The notes under the pieces: model-generated
The model's database searches: none
The model's input: the letters and a program-made list of their open reading frames with translations, nothing else
Told to the model about the DNA's origin: nothing
Translations under genes and position numbers: made by a program
Assembly: GCA_964016885.1 (NCBI GenBank)
Contig: OZ024745.1
Coordinates: 36,394,001-36,458,000, forward strand
DNA from: Eledone cirrhosa
Lineage: Eukaryota
DNA length: 64,000 nt
Direction: 5' to 3'
Shown here: positions 14,266 through 57,508 of the stretch, piece after piece
Layout of the letters: each line of letters opens with the position of its first letter
Position numbering within the stretch: position 1 is the first letter of the stretch

Positions 14266-15790
14266 TGGAGTCTTTTTTTTTAAATATATATATTTATTTG
14301 GTTTCTTTACCTGTTTCGCAGTTCTGCTTTTCAAAAGTAGAGTTGAGATGGGGGGTCTGTGAATTTTCTCACATCTGGTTGGTCTTTGAATGTTACTCAC
14401 ACTCAGATACAGAATAACAGTTCATCGCCAACAATTACGAGATCCAACCACGAAACAGATACAACTAAGTGTACATCTAGACATATGCGCAAGTAATAAG
14501 ACACCTAAATTCCAAGTCTTCCCATTTTACCTTTGCGCTGACAATACAACAGAACAAATACGAATAAATAAGCAAAATATGTTTATTCAAAAATATAGAC
14601 CAGCATTAAATATGGTTTAATATGCATTATGTCAACACCATAACATGCTAACCATCCAAACAGACACATACATACACACACCTATTTTAGAAAATAAAAA
14701 CCAGAACAAAATAAACCTCAACATACGTTAATACTCTAACACCTTAACATGCTAACCACACCTCCACACACAAATAACTCCCTCCCCCATTTCTACTAAC
14801 GGAATCATTTTCCTACACGCACACACAAAAATATATATATTCTCTTCATCTTAACATGCTGACCATACTTCCTCACACACATACACACACACATAACACC
14901 CACACACACACACACAACGCCCTCCCCATTTCTACTAATAGAATCGCTTTTCTACACACACACACACACAAAATATATATATTCTCTCCATCTTAACATG
15001 CTAACCATACTCCCACACACATATACACACACACACACATAACACCAATAAACACACACACACAACTCCCTCCCCCATTTCTACTAATAGAAGAATCATC
15101 TTCTACACACACACAATCACACAAATAAACATACATATCTCTACTTTCTTTATTTCAATAGAAAGTCTGAATTCTGACACCTCAGCAAACCAACCATATT
15201 CACTGAACCAGAACAATTCTCCCCATCCCATTTCTATTGAACATTATCTTTTGTTTGGCACAACATTCTCTAAAAGGCTCCAAAATAAATTCCAAAATAC
15301 GGGCGCAATTTTAATGAACTTGTTCACGTGACAGTCATAATTTCATTTATAACAAATCAAATTACATTTTTTTTAAAAAGGCTTCGTGAGCCACTTTTTT
15401 TAAGTAAAAAGAAATTCAAACACAAACTAGCGCGAAACCTGATGTGTTTATTCACGTGACTGCATCAACCAACCAAACTTCACTCATATTTGAAAAACAA
15501 CCTGATTGTTTGAAGATCTTTGTAACGCGAACTGGCGCGAAATGTATTATACTTATTCACCAACCAATCAAATTACTTCTCTAAAAACCTGGCATTTTGA
15601 GCCACTTTTTTCCATATAAAACAAGTAACATTCAAAGACAAACCAGATGTAAAAAAATCACAGACCCTCCATCTCAACTCTACTTTTGAAAATCAGAAGA
15701 ACTGCGAAACCGGTAAAGGAACCAAATAAATATATATATTTTAAAAAAAAAAGACTCCAGTTGCATTTTCGATTTCATCTTTTTTCCTTA
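14266..15790 (+). mobile_element. 5'-truncated Penelope-like element (Neptune-like) with inverted pLTR
   Basis: Inverted arms 14266-14397 / 15624-15759; GIY-YIG C-terminus; ~130-bp tandem repeats in 3' UTR (14630-15120); degenerate hammerhead 15683-15718; ~30-nt unpaired tail also seen inverted at 24114-24165. Confidence 0.8.
14390..14620 (+). pseudogene. PLE GIY-YIG endonuclease C-terminal half
   Basis: LRYRITVHRQQLRDP..LSVHLDIC..FQVFPFY..RINKQNMFIQKYRPALN matches the R-H...E..FI...P.LN pattern of PLE endonucleases. Confidence 0.75.
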
Positions 15791-15974
15791 TACTTTTACT
15801 CGTGTAGGAGACCTCGGTTATTTTTCATTTTGTAAAAAAAACCTCACTTTCTAATATATATATAAAGAAAGAGGGGTGTATATGTATGTACATATATATA
15901 TATACTGGATGGGTACATGGGAACAACGCTTTTGATAAAAGTATACCTAAACATAATAGGAAAGGTTCTTACTC

Positions 15975-16465
15975 ATCACCTGGTTATTGATAAGACAGTT
16001 TTGATTCATTGTAAGAAACGTCACACAAACACAACTATGGCATGGATTGACTTTAAAAAGGCATACGATATGATGCCCAATTGTTGGCTTCGTGAATGCC
16101 TGCGGAGATTTGGTATTACTGATAACAGCACAAGGTTTATGCGGAATAGTATGCCAGAGTAGAAAACCAAGTTGTACTCTGGCAACGTTTTTCTAGGAGA
16201 ATTAGAAATCAAGAATTATCTCCAAAGATGACTCCTTCTCATCCTTACTATTTGTATAGCACTGATACCTATAACACTCACACTCAGAAAAATAAGGGTG
16301 AGCTACCAATTTGGAAAGCAGGGGCCATTCATAAACCACCTTCTGTTATTTGGATGATCTGAAACTGTTTGGGAAGTCTTAAATCAAATAGACGAATTGG
16401 TTAAAACAGTTTAGATATGTAACAGTGACATCGGTATGGAATTTGGTATTTCCAAATGCTCTGAA
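15975..16465 (+). pseudogene. Reverse transcriptase fragment of an R4/Dong-type non-LTR retrotransposon
   Basis: AWIDFKKAYDMMPNCW, then frameshifted (Q)DDSFSSLLF, INHLL, YLDDLKLFGK, DIGMEFGISKC motifs. Confidence 0.85.
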
Positions 16466-16669
16466 CAGGTAAATTAATCAGGACTAAGAATATTATTTTA
16501 GATATAGACATCGAAATTAAAGAACTAACCCACAATTATCTATTGATTACTAATCGAGGCTCGGAATAAAAAGTGATTGAAACCAGTCTTTCCTTGATAA
16601 CTGGAACTTCAAATGTATGAATCCATTTTTTATTTGAATACGTAAATCTAACTTATAAGATGAGGAGAT

Positions 16670-17060
16670 ATTCTTTGTATATCATAGAGATTGCTGAAAT
16701 GAGGTGGGTAAAATAATTTATGGTTTAGAGTAAGGGTAGGTGTATAAAAGACATGTAGATTTCATACTGCATAAAAATACTTTCAAGCTAAATATTTTTC
16801 GCGCGCCTATTTCTTACAGAATATACATAATATGACTGTCAGTGAAGGTATAACATATCCTAATAATTCAACTTTATGCTTCAACCAGCGATAACTATAA
16901 AGAAGTGGAAAAATTCTAGCATGATCTAAAGAAAAGATTATTGGCGAACAAAGCAAAACAGACATACCTATAGTTGAAAGAGACTAAAATGCAAAGATTG
17001 GATCAGCTGCTCATGATACCAAAGGAAGAAGAGTTGATCAATAGAGCTTGGAAATAATAA
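16670..17060 (+). pseudogene. RTE LINE AP-endonuclease fragment
   Basis: IAEMRW, ILIIQLYASTSDNYKEVEKF, and ERD*NAKIG (GDFNAKIG motif). Confidence 0.65.
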
Positions 17061-54400: not shown

Positions 54401-55772
54401 AATTAAAAAACATTCTATCCATGATTATCCCTTCTGTCTGTATTTATTTTGGAATACGTTATCCAATACCCATTCATTGTTTCAACGGTATGGTGTGGTT
54501 TGAGGGAGATTTGACTACTAATTATATCAGGTCGAGCTACCAGATATACTGTTCTCATAAACCGATAATTAATATCTCTGGTCAATTAAAGGAAGAAGAT
54601 TAAGAATTCTCAGGTGCATTCCAAATATTGGAAATTGATTGCTTGGATAGTAAAGTATTCACAGTATATTGGCCTATTTACTGAATTTTAAGTGTTCCCA
54701 TCTAATCCCCTAGCGTTCTACTCTATTCACAGGATACAGTACTAAGTTTTTATTCTTCTACAGCATGTATATAACAGTATAGTGTAGCTTGTCAATGTTC
54801 AATCGAAAACTGGCCATATGTAAAACCTTCCTGTAAATACGAAGTAAGGACAAATATAAGAACTGTGCACAAATCTTCTCATCTGAAATTATGAGATTCC
54901 TTATATTAGATATCAATATATTGATATAATCTATGTGTAGGCTTTCTCAGTCATGACCATGGTGCCTATTCTATCAGTTTCGACGATGGGCATTAGGACC
55001 ATTCAATCAACTGAATACATGTGAATACATTTCTAATGGGTTGAGTATTACATAGACACGTGTTCCCTTAATGAAATTTACAAACTTCTTTAACGTGGCA
55101 CATTATGTGATAAGGCTGGGCATTTGAATTACAGGTTCAGACGATCTGACGGACATCTATGGTTTCCAACAACCCAATTTCACTCACACTGTTTTGATCG
55201 ATCCGAGCCTATGATAAATACACTTGCATAAGATGCCACACAGCGGGATCAAACACTTTAATGCAAAACGGACTTCTTCACCATGCAGATATACCTGCGT
55301 TCATATTTATAATTAGTTCATCTATTGTGCAAGCCTGTGGCCTAGATGTTAGATTGATGGATTTCCGATCATATCGGGGGGTTAGTGCTAGGGTTAGGGT
55401 TAGAGTCCAGGTGGATGGAGCGTTTCAGAATTCGAGTGAAGCTTCCTTGTATTAGTTGGATTTAATCGTATTCTACCCCGTTTTTACTTTGCATTTATAT
55501 GCTTCTCTGATTCAGATATATTTTAGCCATCTTTTCATTGGGAAGTTCAGTGTATTAGTGATAAATAACCTTCTGTGTGATGTATATATGTAATTTTGAA
55601 ATTGATTGCATTGACACTTCATTAGATAAGTTAGTTTTGCTCAAACCTACTTTGGAGTTTATTTAAATTCACAGTACTTGACACGCTTAAAGAAATGTTT
55701 TATAAGTATAAAATGTTGCTGCAGGTGTTATTGTTCATGATCATGATAATTATGAGGGTAAATATATTGATT

Positions 55773-55880
55773 CCTGGCTTAGTGGTTAGAGAATTATATT
55801 CGTAATCCTAAGGTTGCGAGTTTGATTCCCGGACCGGACGATGTATTACGCCCTTGAACAAGACACTTTATTTTCTGGTG
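55773..55880 (+). mobile_element. CORE-type tRNA SINE (fragments also at 57028-57093 +, ~53312-53355 -, ~54177-54260 -)
   Basis: TGGCTTAGTGGTTAG A box, GTTTGATTCCC B box, CCTTGA.CAAGACACTTTATTT CORE motif. Confidence 0.7.
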
Positions 55881-57312
55881 CTATTTCTGCCAGAAGGTGT
55901 GATCTTCCAGCTGTAGATAAACTTTGAGTGAGTATCACTTATAATTAAAATTACTCCCGTCGTTACAGTCTGACACTTCTTTTAAAGGTAATGATTGACA
56001 ACCCTATTTATTGTGAACTTTCTTTATTTAAGACATTGAGGAATGTAGTAGAGAGGTTTGGTTATTATTTCTAACTGGTCAGGCCATATAGATCCAGCAA
56101 TAGGATACTATACAACTGAATGGTAGGTCATCAATTCGTATCGAGATCAAGACAATTAACTGTGAAATGGCAAAACCCATCCTACCAACACTAAATAGTG
56201 ACCATAGCTGCTGCACCACTGGGCACTTAACGAGTTTATACATGTACAAATTTGCTTTTATTTCATTGGCTCTTACATCCTACATTGCAAGGTAAACGAG
56301 ACAAGAGCTCGTTGTTACTTTATGCGCGAGATTATCGATTACGTTCTGCTTGTGATACCTTGGATTCATTCATATGTAAAATGGCAAAATACCAAATTTA
56401 TGTTCCTCCATAGATAGAAATTTCTGACATTCATATTAACCTCGTAGAATTATGGCTGTGCGGTGTTGCACCTACATTTCATAAGAAAGAGAGCTTTCTT
56501 TGAAATGATCTCTCTGCCGTCTAAGCTTTAACGGAATGACTAAATTCCAAAGAAAAGTCATCTGTGTTAGAGATAAATAAATATACGAAAATCATTATAG
56601 AATATATGAAAGGAAAGAAAAACTAACAATAAGGTTAATATATTGTATCAAACTTCATATCCCTTAAACAATGTATTTATAACATTTAACTTACGTGATA
56701 CTGTCGGCATCTGACTATCTTTCTAAAACAGATTTTCTCAAAATAACATTTATCTTTTAGGTATATACGCTTCTTGCTATCTGAAGTATATATATATATA
56801 TATATATATATATATATATATATATATATATATATATATATATATATATATATACATTATAATTATATATATATATATACATATATATATATATATATAT
56901 ATATATATATATATATATATATATAAAAATATATATATATATATATATATATATATATATATATATATATATATATATATATATATAGATATTGAAAAGA
57001 ATTAAACAGTTCTAGTCCTATAGAAACCAGTTTGATTCCTGGACCGGGCGACGTGTTATGTCCTTGAGCAAGACACTTTATTTCACGTTGCTCCTTCTAC
57101 CTGGAGTTGCGACCGATAGATAGTACTAGCACGTGGAAAGACCGACGAAAACATGGTTTCCTCGGTCCGATTTGACGAAAGTCAATCGATCCTATATATA
57201 TATATATATGGGGGTGTAAATATTTACACAGGTATGTGTACGTATATATATATCTTTATATACATATATATATATATATATATATATATATATATATATA
57301 TATATATATATA

Positions 57313-57508
57313 GGAACAAATAAGACCCCGACGGCTGAGCTCAAGCCGTTTCGACGGCTAATTCTGGACAGACCAGAATTAGCCGTCGAAACGGCTTGAG
57401 CTCAGCCGTCGGGGTCTTATTTGTTCCGATTACCCACTCTACTACCCTAAGTATTGAGTACTTTGGTGCGTTATGGTCCACTTGGTTCCTTACCACATTT
57501 CCTTCGTT
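57313..57508 (+). mobile_element. Youngest-looking copy of the short fold-back family: perfect 55-bp arms + ~80-bp tail
   Basis: 57313-57367 is the exact reverse complement of 57373-57427 (spacer ACAGA); long (TA)n on both sides. Confidence 0.85.

Follow-up and report, generated by a model that had tools for sequence, protein, structure and literature searches.

What produces repeats that carry an inverted partial copy of themselves at one end and an unpaired tail at the other, and what sets the positions at which the copies stop? We addressed this in a 64-kb window of the Eledone cirrhosa genome (the whole stretch of DNA analysed, 64,000 nucleotides), where the original prediction had named seven loci (A to G) whose inverted arm stops short of the element end. 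This holds at all seven, with arms of 55 to 690 bp (identity, 85 to 99%) and one-sided tails of 30 to 169 bp (A, 30; B, 169; D, 80; E, 56; F, 85; G, 80; C, about 85 by its sibling copy at 50902 or about 105 with the expanded (TTA)n counted). The arms of the seven loci occupy 3,575 bp, 5.6% of the window; after masking of simple repeats the window gave 68 local inverted matches, many of them redundant or low complexity, versus 0, 0, 0, 0, and 1 in five block shuffles. Six further loci have the same shape (21462, 21650, 22858, 24185, 44474, and 47031). Contrary to what had been supposed, the families are not unrelated: D and G are one family (82 to 86% identity), so the seven loci represent six families rather than seven, and the families have in common a layout of hammerhead, TA motif, and bulged hairpin. 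Nor is there support for the palindromic form as the usual integration outcome, with a hand tally of the window giving 13 of about 29 insertions resembling Penelope-like elements (PLEs).

Table 1. Palindromic loci, related copies, and sequence motifs in the window
Feature	Position	Strand	Description
Locus A	14266..15789	+	Arms 14266-14397/15624-15759 (94% identity); inverted arm of 132 bp, separated from the direct arm by a 1.2-kb spacer that holds 142-bp repeats; 30-bp tail
Locus B	19238..21353	+	Arms 19238-19901/20396-21184 (98%); apex hairpin 19900-19960, 169-bp tail
B inverted-arm hammerhead	19320	-	Mirror copy; score 11.5
B hammerhead motif	21094..21148	+	Core 21102, U4C variant, cut after 21140; score 14.5
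B tail bulged hairpin	21193..21226	+	9 nt past arm end
D/G-family copy	21462..21622	+	59-bp inverted part, 22-bp direct arm, 79-bp tail
Locus J	21650..21858	+	Arms meeting at an exact apex near 21711; tail of about 80 bp
J tail bulged hairpin	21782	+	With compensatory pair
Locus K	22858..23022	-	Short arms, 64-bp tail at left
K tail bulged hairpin	22910	-	
Locus C	23162..23916	-	Arms 23617-23735/23807-23924 (92%); tail 23162-23620, interrupted by RTE-like insert 23256-23600 with 12-13 bp duplication; direct arm 23621-23735, 71-bp spacer, inverted arm 23807-23916
C hammerhead-like motif	core 23686	-	U4A, borderline score 10.9
Locus H	24185..24355	+	84-bp inverted part, 23-bp direct arm, 64-bp tail
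H tail bulged hairpin	24296	+	
Locus D	29299..29525	-	Arms 29376-29450/29453-29526 (85%); 80-bp tail at left, 75-bp arms, exact apex 29451-29452
H-family sibling solo arm	29828-29917		Canonical-core hammerhead
PLE C-terminal GIY-YIG remnant	32431..33144	+	One in-frame stop; has the CxCX5C linker but lacks an inverted arm
Relative of E	34482..34646	-	Hammerhead core 34547, 21-bp exact hairpin at 5' end
C-family copy	44474..44575	+	21-bp inverted arm fused directly to tail minus first ~12 bp; no direct arm
Second PLE remnant	44612..47011	+	GIY-YIG region 44612-45351, CxCX5C, hammerhead 46899, no inverted arm
D/G-family copy	47031..47084	-	24-bp inverted arm fused to final 30 bp of tail; no direct arm
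Locus E	48096..49389	+	Arms 48096-48672/48757-49333 (98.4%); 577-bp arms, apex hairpin 48730-48762, 56-bp tail
E hammerhead	48301	-	
E hammerhead	49128	+	
Locus F	51044..51458	+	Arms 51034-51104/51309-51378 (98.6%); arms of 61-70 bp around a 204-bp spacer, tail of 85 bp
F tail bulged hairpin	51381	+	
Locus G	57313..57508	+	Arms 57310-57367/57373-57430 (98%); 55-bp arms, 5-nt loop, 80-bp tail
G tail bulged hairpin	57436	+	

Most of these loci are probably the 3' ends of PLEs of the Hydra clade; the PLE origin suggested earlier is supported by hammerhead motifs in some families, (TA)n flanks, and inverted 5'-truncated copies. The last of these, a mark of EN+ Penelope-like elements when placed at the 5' end, occurs at all seven loci and at the six more, and insertion in (TA)n, a mark of the Hydra clade, is seen throughout except at locus A. 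EN+ PLEs also bear a type I hammerhead in sense orientation close to the 3' end. A hammerhead descriptor gave 14 matches scoring at least 10, compared to a mean of 1.07 over 30 shuffles. B and E have matches in each of their two arms, C has one in its direct arm, and the H family has one in an arm (three of the six families of the seven loci); in all of these the sense of the motif places the tail 3'. The B and C cores are variants, and the C score of 10.9 is a level met 0.6 to 1.1 times per shuffle. No hammerhead at the descriptor threshold was found in A, D/G, F, J, or K, and Rfam gave none among the matches listed for the whole window (150 of 197) or for B and E alone. The arm end lies 44 nt past the cut in B, 25 nt in C, and 41 nt in the H family, and TA follows the cut by 47 and 40 nt in two solo copies; the E arm end, 171 nt past the cut, is off the pattern of B, C, and H. 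In published Hydra consensus ends, the TA motif or end comes about 22 to 48 nt past the cut, counted by eye.

The window also holds two Hydra-type endonuclease remnants, both with CxCX5C and CxxC and one with CxH, which together with RWK and DKT are features of the Hydra clade (PMC8557442, section 11). The N-terminal RWK/DKT region is absent from the window; among the nine relatives of the remnants, several of them N-terminally short, RW[KR] is present in four and DKT in five. The second remnant ends in (TA)n 47 nt past the cut, and we infer that its GIY-YIG region is continuous with the hammerhead-bearing 3' piece up to 47011. A tblastn search with nine PLE proteins matched only the two remnants and nothing inside any palindrome, no reverse transcriptase (RT) core was found in the 64-kb window, and none of the arms or tails connects to an RT or endonuclease reading frame. 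Because the RT plus GIY-YIG ORF that EN+ PLEs carry is expected to be missing from short 3' fragments, we class the loci as likely remnants or non-autonomous derivatives rather than as established members. At locus E, an ATG-led frame of 27 codons runs past the element end. We consider a PLE origin very probable for B, C, D/G, E, and F and evenly balanced for A, where the link is weakest. Locus A has no hammerhead and no tail hairpin and lies outside any microsatellite; its distal end is common to a copy at 24115-24160, which sits in (TA)n.

The expected microsatellite bias of the termini is clear: a perfect dinucleotide tract of at least 12 bp lies within 10 bp of 10 of the 14 ends (background, 2.0%), while 0 of 20 control SINE/LINE ends come within 30 bp of such a tract. 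The left ends of B (14 bp away) and C (26 bp, through a TTA run) are near misses, and both ends of A are far from tracts (442 and 102 bp). A stricter 3-bp rule retained 10/14 ends of the seven loci, with one miss from a misplaced F end coordinate, and 12/12 ends of the six further loci, versus 0/18 controls and a background of 1.6%. The GA and CA tracts separate the arm from a TA tract, so the target looks like (TA)n. Neither a full-length copy nor an empty site is present in the window, and the TA flanks mask any target-site duplication.

A fixed, family-specific arm end had also been proposed, and two families support it: all five D/G-family arms end at the same position, and all five C-family inverted arms end within about 3 nt of one position, with a single arm end each for A, B, E, and F. 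At the arm end, the direct copy overlaps the flank by 5 bp in B and J, 4 in C, E, and F, 3 in D/G, 2 in H, 1 in K, and 0 in A. The sum over these nine families is 28, versus a null mean of 8.7 (p = 4e-4), and six of the nine overlap by at least 3 bp (p = 2.5e-5). Of the 12 arm ends searched, six (B, F, G, H, J, and K) are followed 4 to 12 nt further on by a bulged hairpin (chance, 0.7% per site), as recognized by a descriptor composed after inspecting these tails and published ends. It has a 4-bp outer stem (GCUC/GAGC), a 2-nt 3' bulge, and a 4- to 5-bp inner stem varying in sequence, and it is found in the tails of six of nine families; seven alternative bulge geometries occur at 0 to 1 of the 12 arm ends. 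The hairpin is not present in A or E, and C, its 50902 sibling, D, and the 21462 copy fail the descriptor. Plain alignment of nine tails reached only 34% identity without bringing the motif into register, and folding gave z beyond -2 in just 3 of 15 tails, most being no better than shuffles. By eye, the same bulged shape follows the TA motif in three of six published novel Hydra consensi, and a fourth consensus begins with it at its 5' end. The tail hairpin likely marks a second fixed start point of copying.

We propose that the palindromes are 5'-truncated PLE insertions, mostly of the (TA)n-targeting Hydra clade, in which reverse transcription would start from both nicked target strands, at two fixed positions along the element RNA; we put the probability of this two-primer step at about 0.55 to 0.6. 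The template would be a read-through RNA in which the 3'UTR, hammerhead, some 25 to 47 nt, and a short UA motif are followed by the next tandem unit, starting with the hairpin, a predicted protein-binding signal that would fix both sites. One strand would prime at a distal site beyond the hairpin, giving direct copy and tail, and the other would pair by 3 to 5 nt with the UA motif at a proximal site just 5' of the hairpin, giving an inverted arm without a tail. The two cDNAs would be joined head to head, probably aided by snap-back that would leave exact apex hairpins. A distal run stalling near the proximal site would yield the short form resembling L1 twin priming, in which the inverted part extends further than the direct part (21462, 24185, 44474, and 47031). 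Both cDNAs reaching the same RNA 5' end would yield an exact palindrome (D, G, and J), from which B and E would derive by one deletion beside the apex, and priming by a single strand would leave a solo arm or solo tail.

The main rival, which we judge unlikely on balance, is that one distally primed cDNA snaps back and copies itself; the second strand would then be cleaved or ligated at a TA-like position inside the element, and the short and solo pieces would be later deletions. In its favor, the apex hairpins of B, D, E, G, J, and 34603-34646 are exact or nearly so. Palindromes drive deletion between short repeats, and deletions next to the apex are seen in B (435 bp, retained only on the direct side) and in E, whose direct side lacks 59 bp bounded by 6-bp repeats. 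Self-priming has moreover been proposed for PLE junction palindromes (PMC3846280). However, an apex hairpin was looked for and not found in A, C, and F, and, of the two routes first envisaged, fold-back or second-strand priming, fold-back alone misses 4 of the 13 loci, those of the short form, as well as four partnerless solo arms with the same end site (19075, 23040, 44292, and 29828), unless later deletions are added. In vitro, both strands are extended (PMC11167929). The four short forms could, against two-primer copying, be later deletions of full palindromes, deletions of a kind that B and E show.

It is improbable that the arms are inherited within a DNA element of the Helentron/HINE, MITE, or DIRS type whose inverted repeats are asymmetric and which moves the whole arm-spacer-arm-tail unit. 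The short D/G and C copies do retain both ends while the middle varies, and 19075-19133 matches the D inverted arm no less closely than its partner arm does (differences, 11/59 to its own arm versus 9/59 to another locus); arm identity is likewise uninformative in C (4/65 versus 3/66). The arms of G and E, however, are far nearer each other than to sister copies (G, 2/59 versus 15 to 19/59; E, 2/143 versus 13 and 15), the apex position is variable, hammerheads lie on the sense strand, 3' folds are weak at 8/8 ends (-0.1 to -5.2 kcal/mol), and the flanks are TA rather than T-runs. For locus A alone, with internal repeats containing microsatellites and no hammerhead, such an element is conceivable, if still doubtful. 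As to named types, the internal region complementary to the outer ends that marks DIRS1-type elements was not found at five loci (none in A, B, C, or F, and in E only a 10-bp mid-tail match; p = 0.01, 1 of 10 tests). Helentrons/HINEs have short subterminal repeats, a stable 3' hairpin, and a T-rich target, which the arms of 55 to 690 bp, weak folds, and TA flanks do not match. MITE or TIR transposons have an inverted repeat at either terminus that is constant within the family; here one repeat lies 30 to 169 bp inside the terminus and the G and E arms are copy specific.

Host replication or repair fold-back at (TA)n hairpins, duplicating nearby DNA in inverted form independently of any element, seems more remote: TA-centered palindromes do occur in the window (23862-24055, 5016-5534, and 13415-13840), the first having private variants in common with the C inverted arm, but in A to G the TA tracts lie at the outer ends, and the per-family arm end recurs across loci 25 to 38 kb apart. 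Assembly or library chimeras (read fold-backs), to which identity of 5143-5215 and 5361-5433 over 73 bp (100%) and a palindrome arm (24001-24053) differing at 1/53 might point, are scarcely credible, since the arms have diverged (E, 9/573, gapless; A, C, and D, 6 to 15%; B, a 13-bp indel and unequal satellite growth) and locus C is interrupted by an RTE-like insert that has a target duplication.

L1 twin priming produces an inversion when the second strand of the target uses short homology to prime within the RNA, at variable sites and with little duplication; our four short loci are alike in shape, whereas the fixed site and the common long duplicated arms differ. Among PLEs, earlier work already describes the inverted 5' copy, the tail, palindromes at the junction, self-priming, and a bias toward (TA)n, with self-priming and the tail covered in PMC3846280, PMC8557442, and PMC11167929. 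Canonical elements (Penelope, Naiad, and Adineta Pen; PMC3846280, PMC8557442) share the inverted 5'-truncated copy, optional one-sided tail, and junction palindromes, along with hammerhead pairs on opposite strands 100 to 700 bp apart (PMC4209133), but their published tails are 30 to 40 bp, a length matched only by A (others, 56 to 169 bp). The Hydra clade (PMC8557442) shares (TA)n insertion, a hammerhead near the 3' end (here a motif in some families), the CxCX5C linker of the window remnants, and an extra base on each side of hammerhead stem II, common there and present in the C motif; one Repbase member is recorded with a 5'-truncated inverted copy. Unlike that clade, the palindromic loci are ORF-less, with tails of up to 169 bp and variant cores in B and C. 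For anole Poseidon PAc in vitro, PMC11167929 describes cutting and extension of both strands, AT-rich targets, and two internal start sites that delimit the tail, with a start within a stem-loop, and the portion consulted does not deal with inverted products; those start sites are non-homologous to the cut DNA, in contrast to the 3- to 5-bp overlap at the proximal site in six of nine families here. Non-LTR retrozymes (bioRxiv 10.64898/2026.07.22.740005) are likewise short non-coding hammerhead sequences related to PLE pLTRs, with many monomers, but are defined by tandem direct units, whereas our loci are head to head. A literature search found no prior account of tails up to 170 bp, of a 3- to 5-bp overlap between arm end and flanking repeat, of loci whose inverted part exceeds the direct one, or of the shared bulged hairpin, though this is visible in published Hydra consensus ends; the main text of PMC8557442 mentions neither overlap nor hairpin, with zero occurrences of "stem-loop," "hairpin," or "palindrom."

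How PLE tandem and inverted structures form and why microsatellites are preferred is a named open task (PMC8557442, section 15). The hairpin, UA motif, and two fixed ends are concrete cis-signals that can be mutated in an existing in vitro assay. In microsatellite-rich genomes, the layout makes it possible to assign short "unknown" repeats and apparent MITEs to PLEs. Arms of 0.6 to 0.7 kb that are 98% identical would be predicted, if transcribed, to form dsRNA. Tentatively, and with the odds somewhat against it, we suggest that a bulged RNA hairpin is conserved among Hydra-clade PLEs in hosts ranging from corals and sea cucumbers to this genome. By binding the RT-endonuclease, it would set two priming sites on a single RNA, one of which would pair with the (TA)n target through a short UA motif. 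If so, fixed-site twin priming would jointly explain the tail, the inverted copy, and the TA bias, TA tracts might also be made by telomerase-like slippage on the UA motif, and Hydra-clade PLEs would be a steady source of palindromes.

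All seven palindromic loci (A to G) have the layout of the original prediction, an inverted arm, a spacer or apex, a direct arm and a one-sided unpaired tail, with arm identities of 85 to 99%; their arms make up 5.6% of the window. Six further loci have the same shape, and the masked window gave 68 local inverted matches, many of them redundant, versus 0 to 1 per shuffle (n = 5). Contrary to what had been claimed, the families are not all unrelated: D and G belong to a single one (D/G). Assembly artefact, named in advance as what would overturn the prediction, is harder to sustain: arms differ by substitutions and by a 13-bp indel, a satellite has grown unequally, and one later insertion carries a target duplication, all of which argue against read chimeras. 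In B, both arms carry an A-rich hexamer satellite, grown to 161 bp in one and 288 bp in the other, and these unequal lengths indicate change after the duplication.

Palindromic loci and other features of the window
Feature	Position	Tail (bp)	Arm-end overlap (bases)
Locus A	14266-15789	30	0
Locus B	19238-21353	169	5
Locus C	23162-23916	about 85-105	4
Locus D	29299-29525	80	3 (D/G)
Locus E	48096-49389	56	4
Locus F	51044-51458	85	4
Locus G	57313-57508	80	3 (D/G)
Further locus, same shape	21462
Further locus J, same shape	21650		5
Further locus K, same shape	22858		1
Further locus H, same shape	24185		2
Further locus, same shape	44474
Further locus, same shape	47031
Satellite in arms of B	19464-19626, 20684-20972
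Repeats in spacer of A	15330-15650
Relative of A-spacer repeat	6101-6226
Reverse transcriptase fragment	15866-16430
LINE 3' fragment in C	23256-23600 (-)
TA-centred palindromes	5016-5534, 13415-13840, 23862-24055
Flank at arm end of B	19154-19242
TA-hairpin end	34066-34118
Bulged hairpin without arm	42002-42132
Element at TA tract	49575-50070
Endonuclease remnants	32431-33144, 44612-45351
305-bp hammerhead family	6392-6697, 35951-36258
SINE-like family	2013-2304, 3051-3250, 12185-12382, 17551-17616, 31948-32148, 43763-43868, 47482-47637, 58425-59030
PLE-like insertions without arm and tail	6392, 12987, 19075, 23040, 24115, 29745, 29828, 32431, 34482, 35951, 36621, 38857, 42002, 44292, 44612, 50902

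Several features accompany individual loci. The spacer of A holds imperfect repeats of about 120 to 200 bp with motifs that we take to be E2F-like, CCAAT-like and E-box-like; a 74% relative lies elsewhere within an element bounded by TA tracts, and directly right of A is a degraded non-LTR reverse transcriptase fragment (weak RVT_1 match). The loop region of the C tail hairpin contains a LINE 3' fragment, presumably RTE-like, with a 12- to 13-bp target duplication. Very short frames occur in three D/G tails (ATG-led, 11 to 12 codons) and in E (27 codons).

The predicted fixed, family-specific arm end was borne out in the D/G and C families. In D/G it falls on the same base in all five arm-bearing copies, and the tail ends at the same place in 4/4; in the C family, the ends of five of five inverted arms agree to within about 3 nt, a count that takes in the copy at 24001, probably a secondary duplicate, and three of three tails end alike. 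Ends agree in both H-family copies, and the distal ends of A and of F are each common to one other copy; for B and E a second end for comparison is lacking. Inner junctions differ among copies. In G and E the arms are specific to the copy; those of C and D are uninformative on this point, and D/G difference counts are inflated because the arm-identity alignment misregisters a 2-nt indel.

The window is AT-rich and animal-like in composition (GC, 25 to 38% per 2 kb), with perfect dinucleotide tracts covering 7.4% of it (TA, 5.1%). The expected microsatellite bias is clear: 10 of the 14 ends of A to G are no more than 10 bp from a dinucleotide tract (background, 2.0%), and none of 20 control SINE/LINE ends lies within even 30 bp. 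The abundant SINE-like family used as a control, which we assume to be octopus-like, has 16 ends, none near a microsatellite. A catalogued element end sits beside 20 of the 56 TA tracts of at least 20 bp. Locus A is an exception in lying outside a microsatellite; its 45-bp sister copy lies inside one. At the arm end, the next few bases of the direct copy keep the phase of the repeat in the flank, with a summed overlap of 28 (p = 4e-4, empirical null). The flank of B is (TA)n followed by (GA)n, the order of two short motifs in the direct copy there, and these tracts may have expanded from template motifs.

Beyond the arm end, a small bulged RNA hairpin is predicted to begin within 4 to 12 nt at 6 of 12 tested sites, representing six of nine families. 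Its outer stem is of the GCUC/GAGC type, its 3' bulge measures 2 nt, and no two families have the same inner-stem sequence; the descriptor is post hoc, with a chance rate of 0.7% per site, and other geometries gave 0 to 1 of 12. Loci A, E, C, 50902, D and 21462 failed it (the C sibling has an inner stem of 2 bp, and the outer stems of D and 21462 are altered), and global tail alignment was uninformative. Among six novel consensi of Hydra, a PLE (Penelope-like element) clade that targets (TA)n, compared by eye (PMC8557442 supplement), three extend roughly 55 to 85 nt beyond the TA motif and into this hairpin; the other three end about 36 to 48 nt past the hammerhead cut, one with the hairpin at its 5' start. 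On this reading the tail probably represents the beginning of a following tandem unit, and the arm end the 3' terminus of the unit itself. Another TA-hairpin end of this kind is possibly part of the first ORF remnant. The scan also picked up an armless bulged hairpin, some 130 bp upstream of a (TA)n(GA)n tract, as a possible additional tail-type end; the descriptor also matched an element beginning at a TA tract and resembling a nonautonomous Helitron.

Scanning by structure gave 14 hammerhead motifs with a score of at least 10, compared with 1.07 per shuffle. Among them are motifs in both arms of B and of E, the C direct arm and an H-family arm, there always with the tail 3'; descriptors with stricter stems miss the C motif and others. 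The C core is U4A with a borderline score. The B core is U4C, described as a natural variant of low activity in the available text of PMC3088659, and the same stem III recurs at 38976 in an unrelated copy: the families at 38857-38990 (-) and 21094-21148 (+), otherwise dissimilar, have in common this core and an identical palindromic stem III. The scan gave no motif at threshold in A, D/G, F, J or K. A 3' half-hammerhead in D/G, whose unit folds otherwise, and a decayed hammerhead in the F spacer, both seen by eye, were rejected as unsupported by the scan. Rfam returned nothing at gathering score among the 150 listed of 197 whole-window matches, which microsatellite-driven miRNA matches dominate, and no ribozyme in B and E alone; ARAGORN found no tRNAs in the window. 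A 305-bp hammerhead-bearing family is present in two copies that begin at the same 5' position and lack an inverted arm; it resembles a retrozyme monomer.

Two endonuclease remnants match nine PLE proteins and carry the Hydra-type CxCX5C linker, without an inverted arm; no ORF lies inside any palindrome. Across 10 window frames, Pfam gave one weak RVT_1 match; five of the nine relatives were scanned and gave none. By eye, the first ORF remnant is closest to the octopus consensus among the six novel Hydra consensi, and PMC8557442, in its available text, places Hydra-clade PLEs in aquatic invertebrates including Octopus. None of twelve short motifs from the window turned up in the Naiad/Chlamys/Hydra consensus files, where line breaks can mask matches, leaving every family without a matching named consensus.

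The best fit, at a probability of roughly 0.55, is priming by both target strands at two fixed RNA sites that would flank the hairpin, with two products then joined head to head, probably aided by snap-back. This model covers twin-priming-like short forms, exact palindromes, short-arm forms and solo ends. At four short loci the inverted part has sequence absent from the direct side (59 versus 22 bp, 84 versus 23, 24 versus 0 and 21 versus 0), and arms or tails standing alone are also seen between TA tracts. The two-strand, two-site model agrees with the in vitro system of PMC11167929, where, in the available text, both strands are extended and two start sites bound the tail; unlike in our proposal, no homology of the start sites to the target was seen there. 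That a conserved hairpin directs this fixed-site twin priming is a tentative suggestion. Pure fold-back with later deletion accounts well for exact apices and, judged from this one window, is a less probable alternative. For A to G, readings as DNA elements, host fold-back or artefact are weak. Palindromes of another sort, in which the inverted duplication has a (TA)n tract at its centre or elsewhere within it, may be host fold-back or artefact; two of the three are nearly perfect.

Integration with arm and tail was expected to be the usual outcome; by hand tally it is common, with 13 insertions against about 16 PLE-like ones without it, which does not establish it as the norm.

The palindromic loci are real, and their outline is already known for PLEs. 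In the available texts, an inverted 5' copy, a 30- to 40-bp tail and (TA)n bias are in print (PMC8557442), as are junction palindromes, self-priming and small RNAs (PMC3846280), hammerhead pairs on opposite strands (PMC4209133), PLE-derived nonautonomous hammerhead elements (bioRxiv 10.64898/2026.07.22.740005) and long (AT)n associated with PLEs in shrimp (PMC7878876). The openly searchable literature yielded no account of the hairpin, the arm-end overlap, the longer tails or a PLE twin-priming model. What is new here is the tail length and the cis-signals that these families share.
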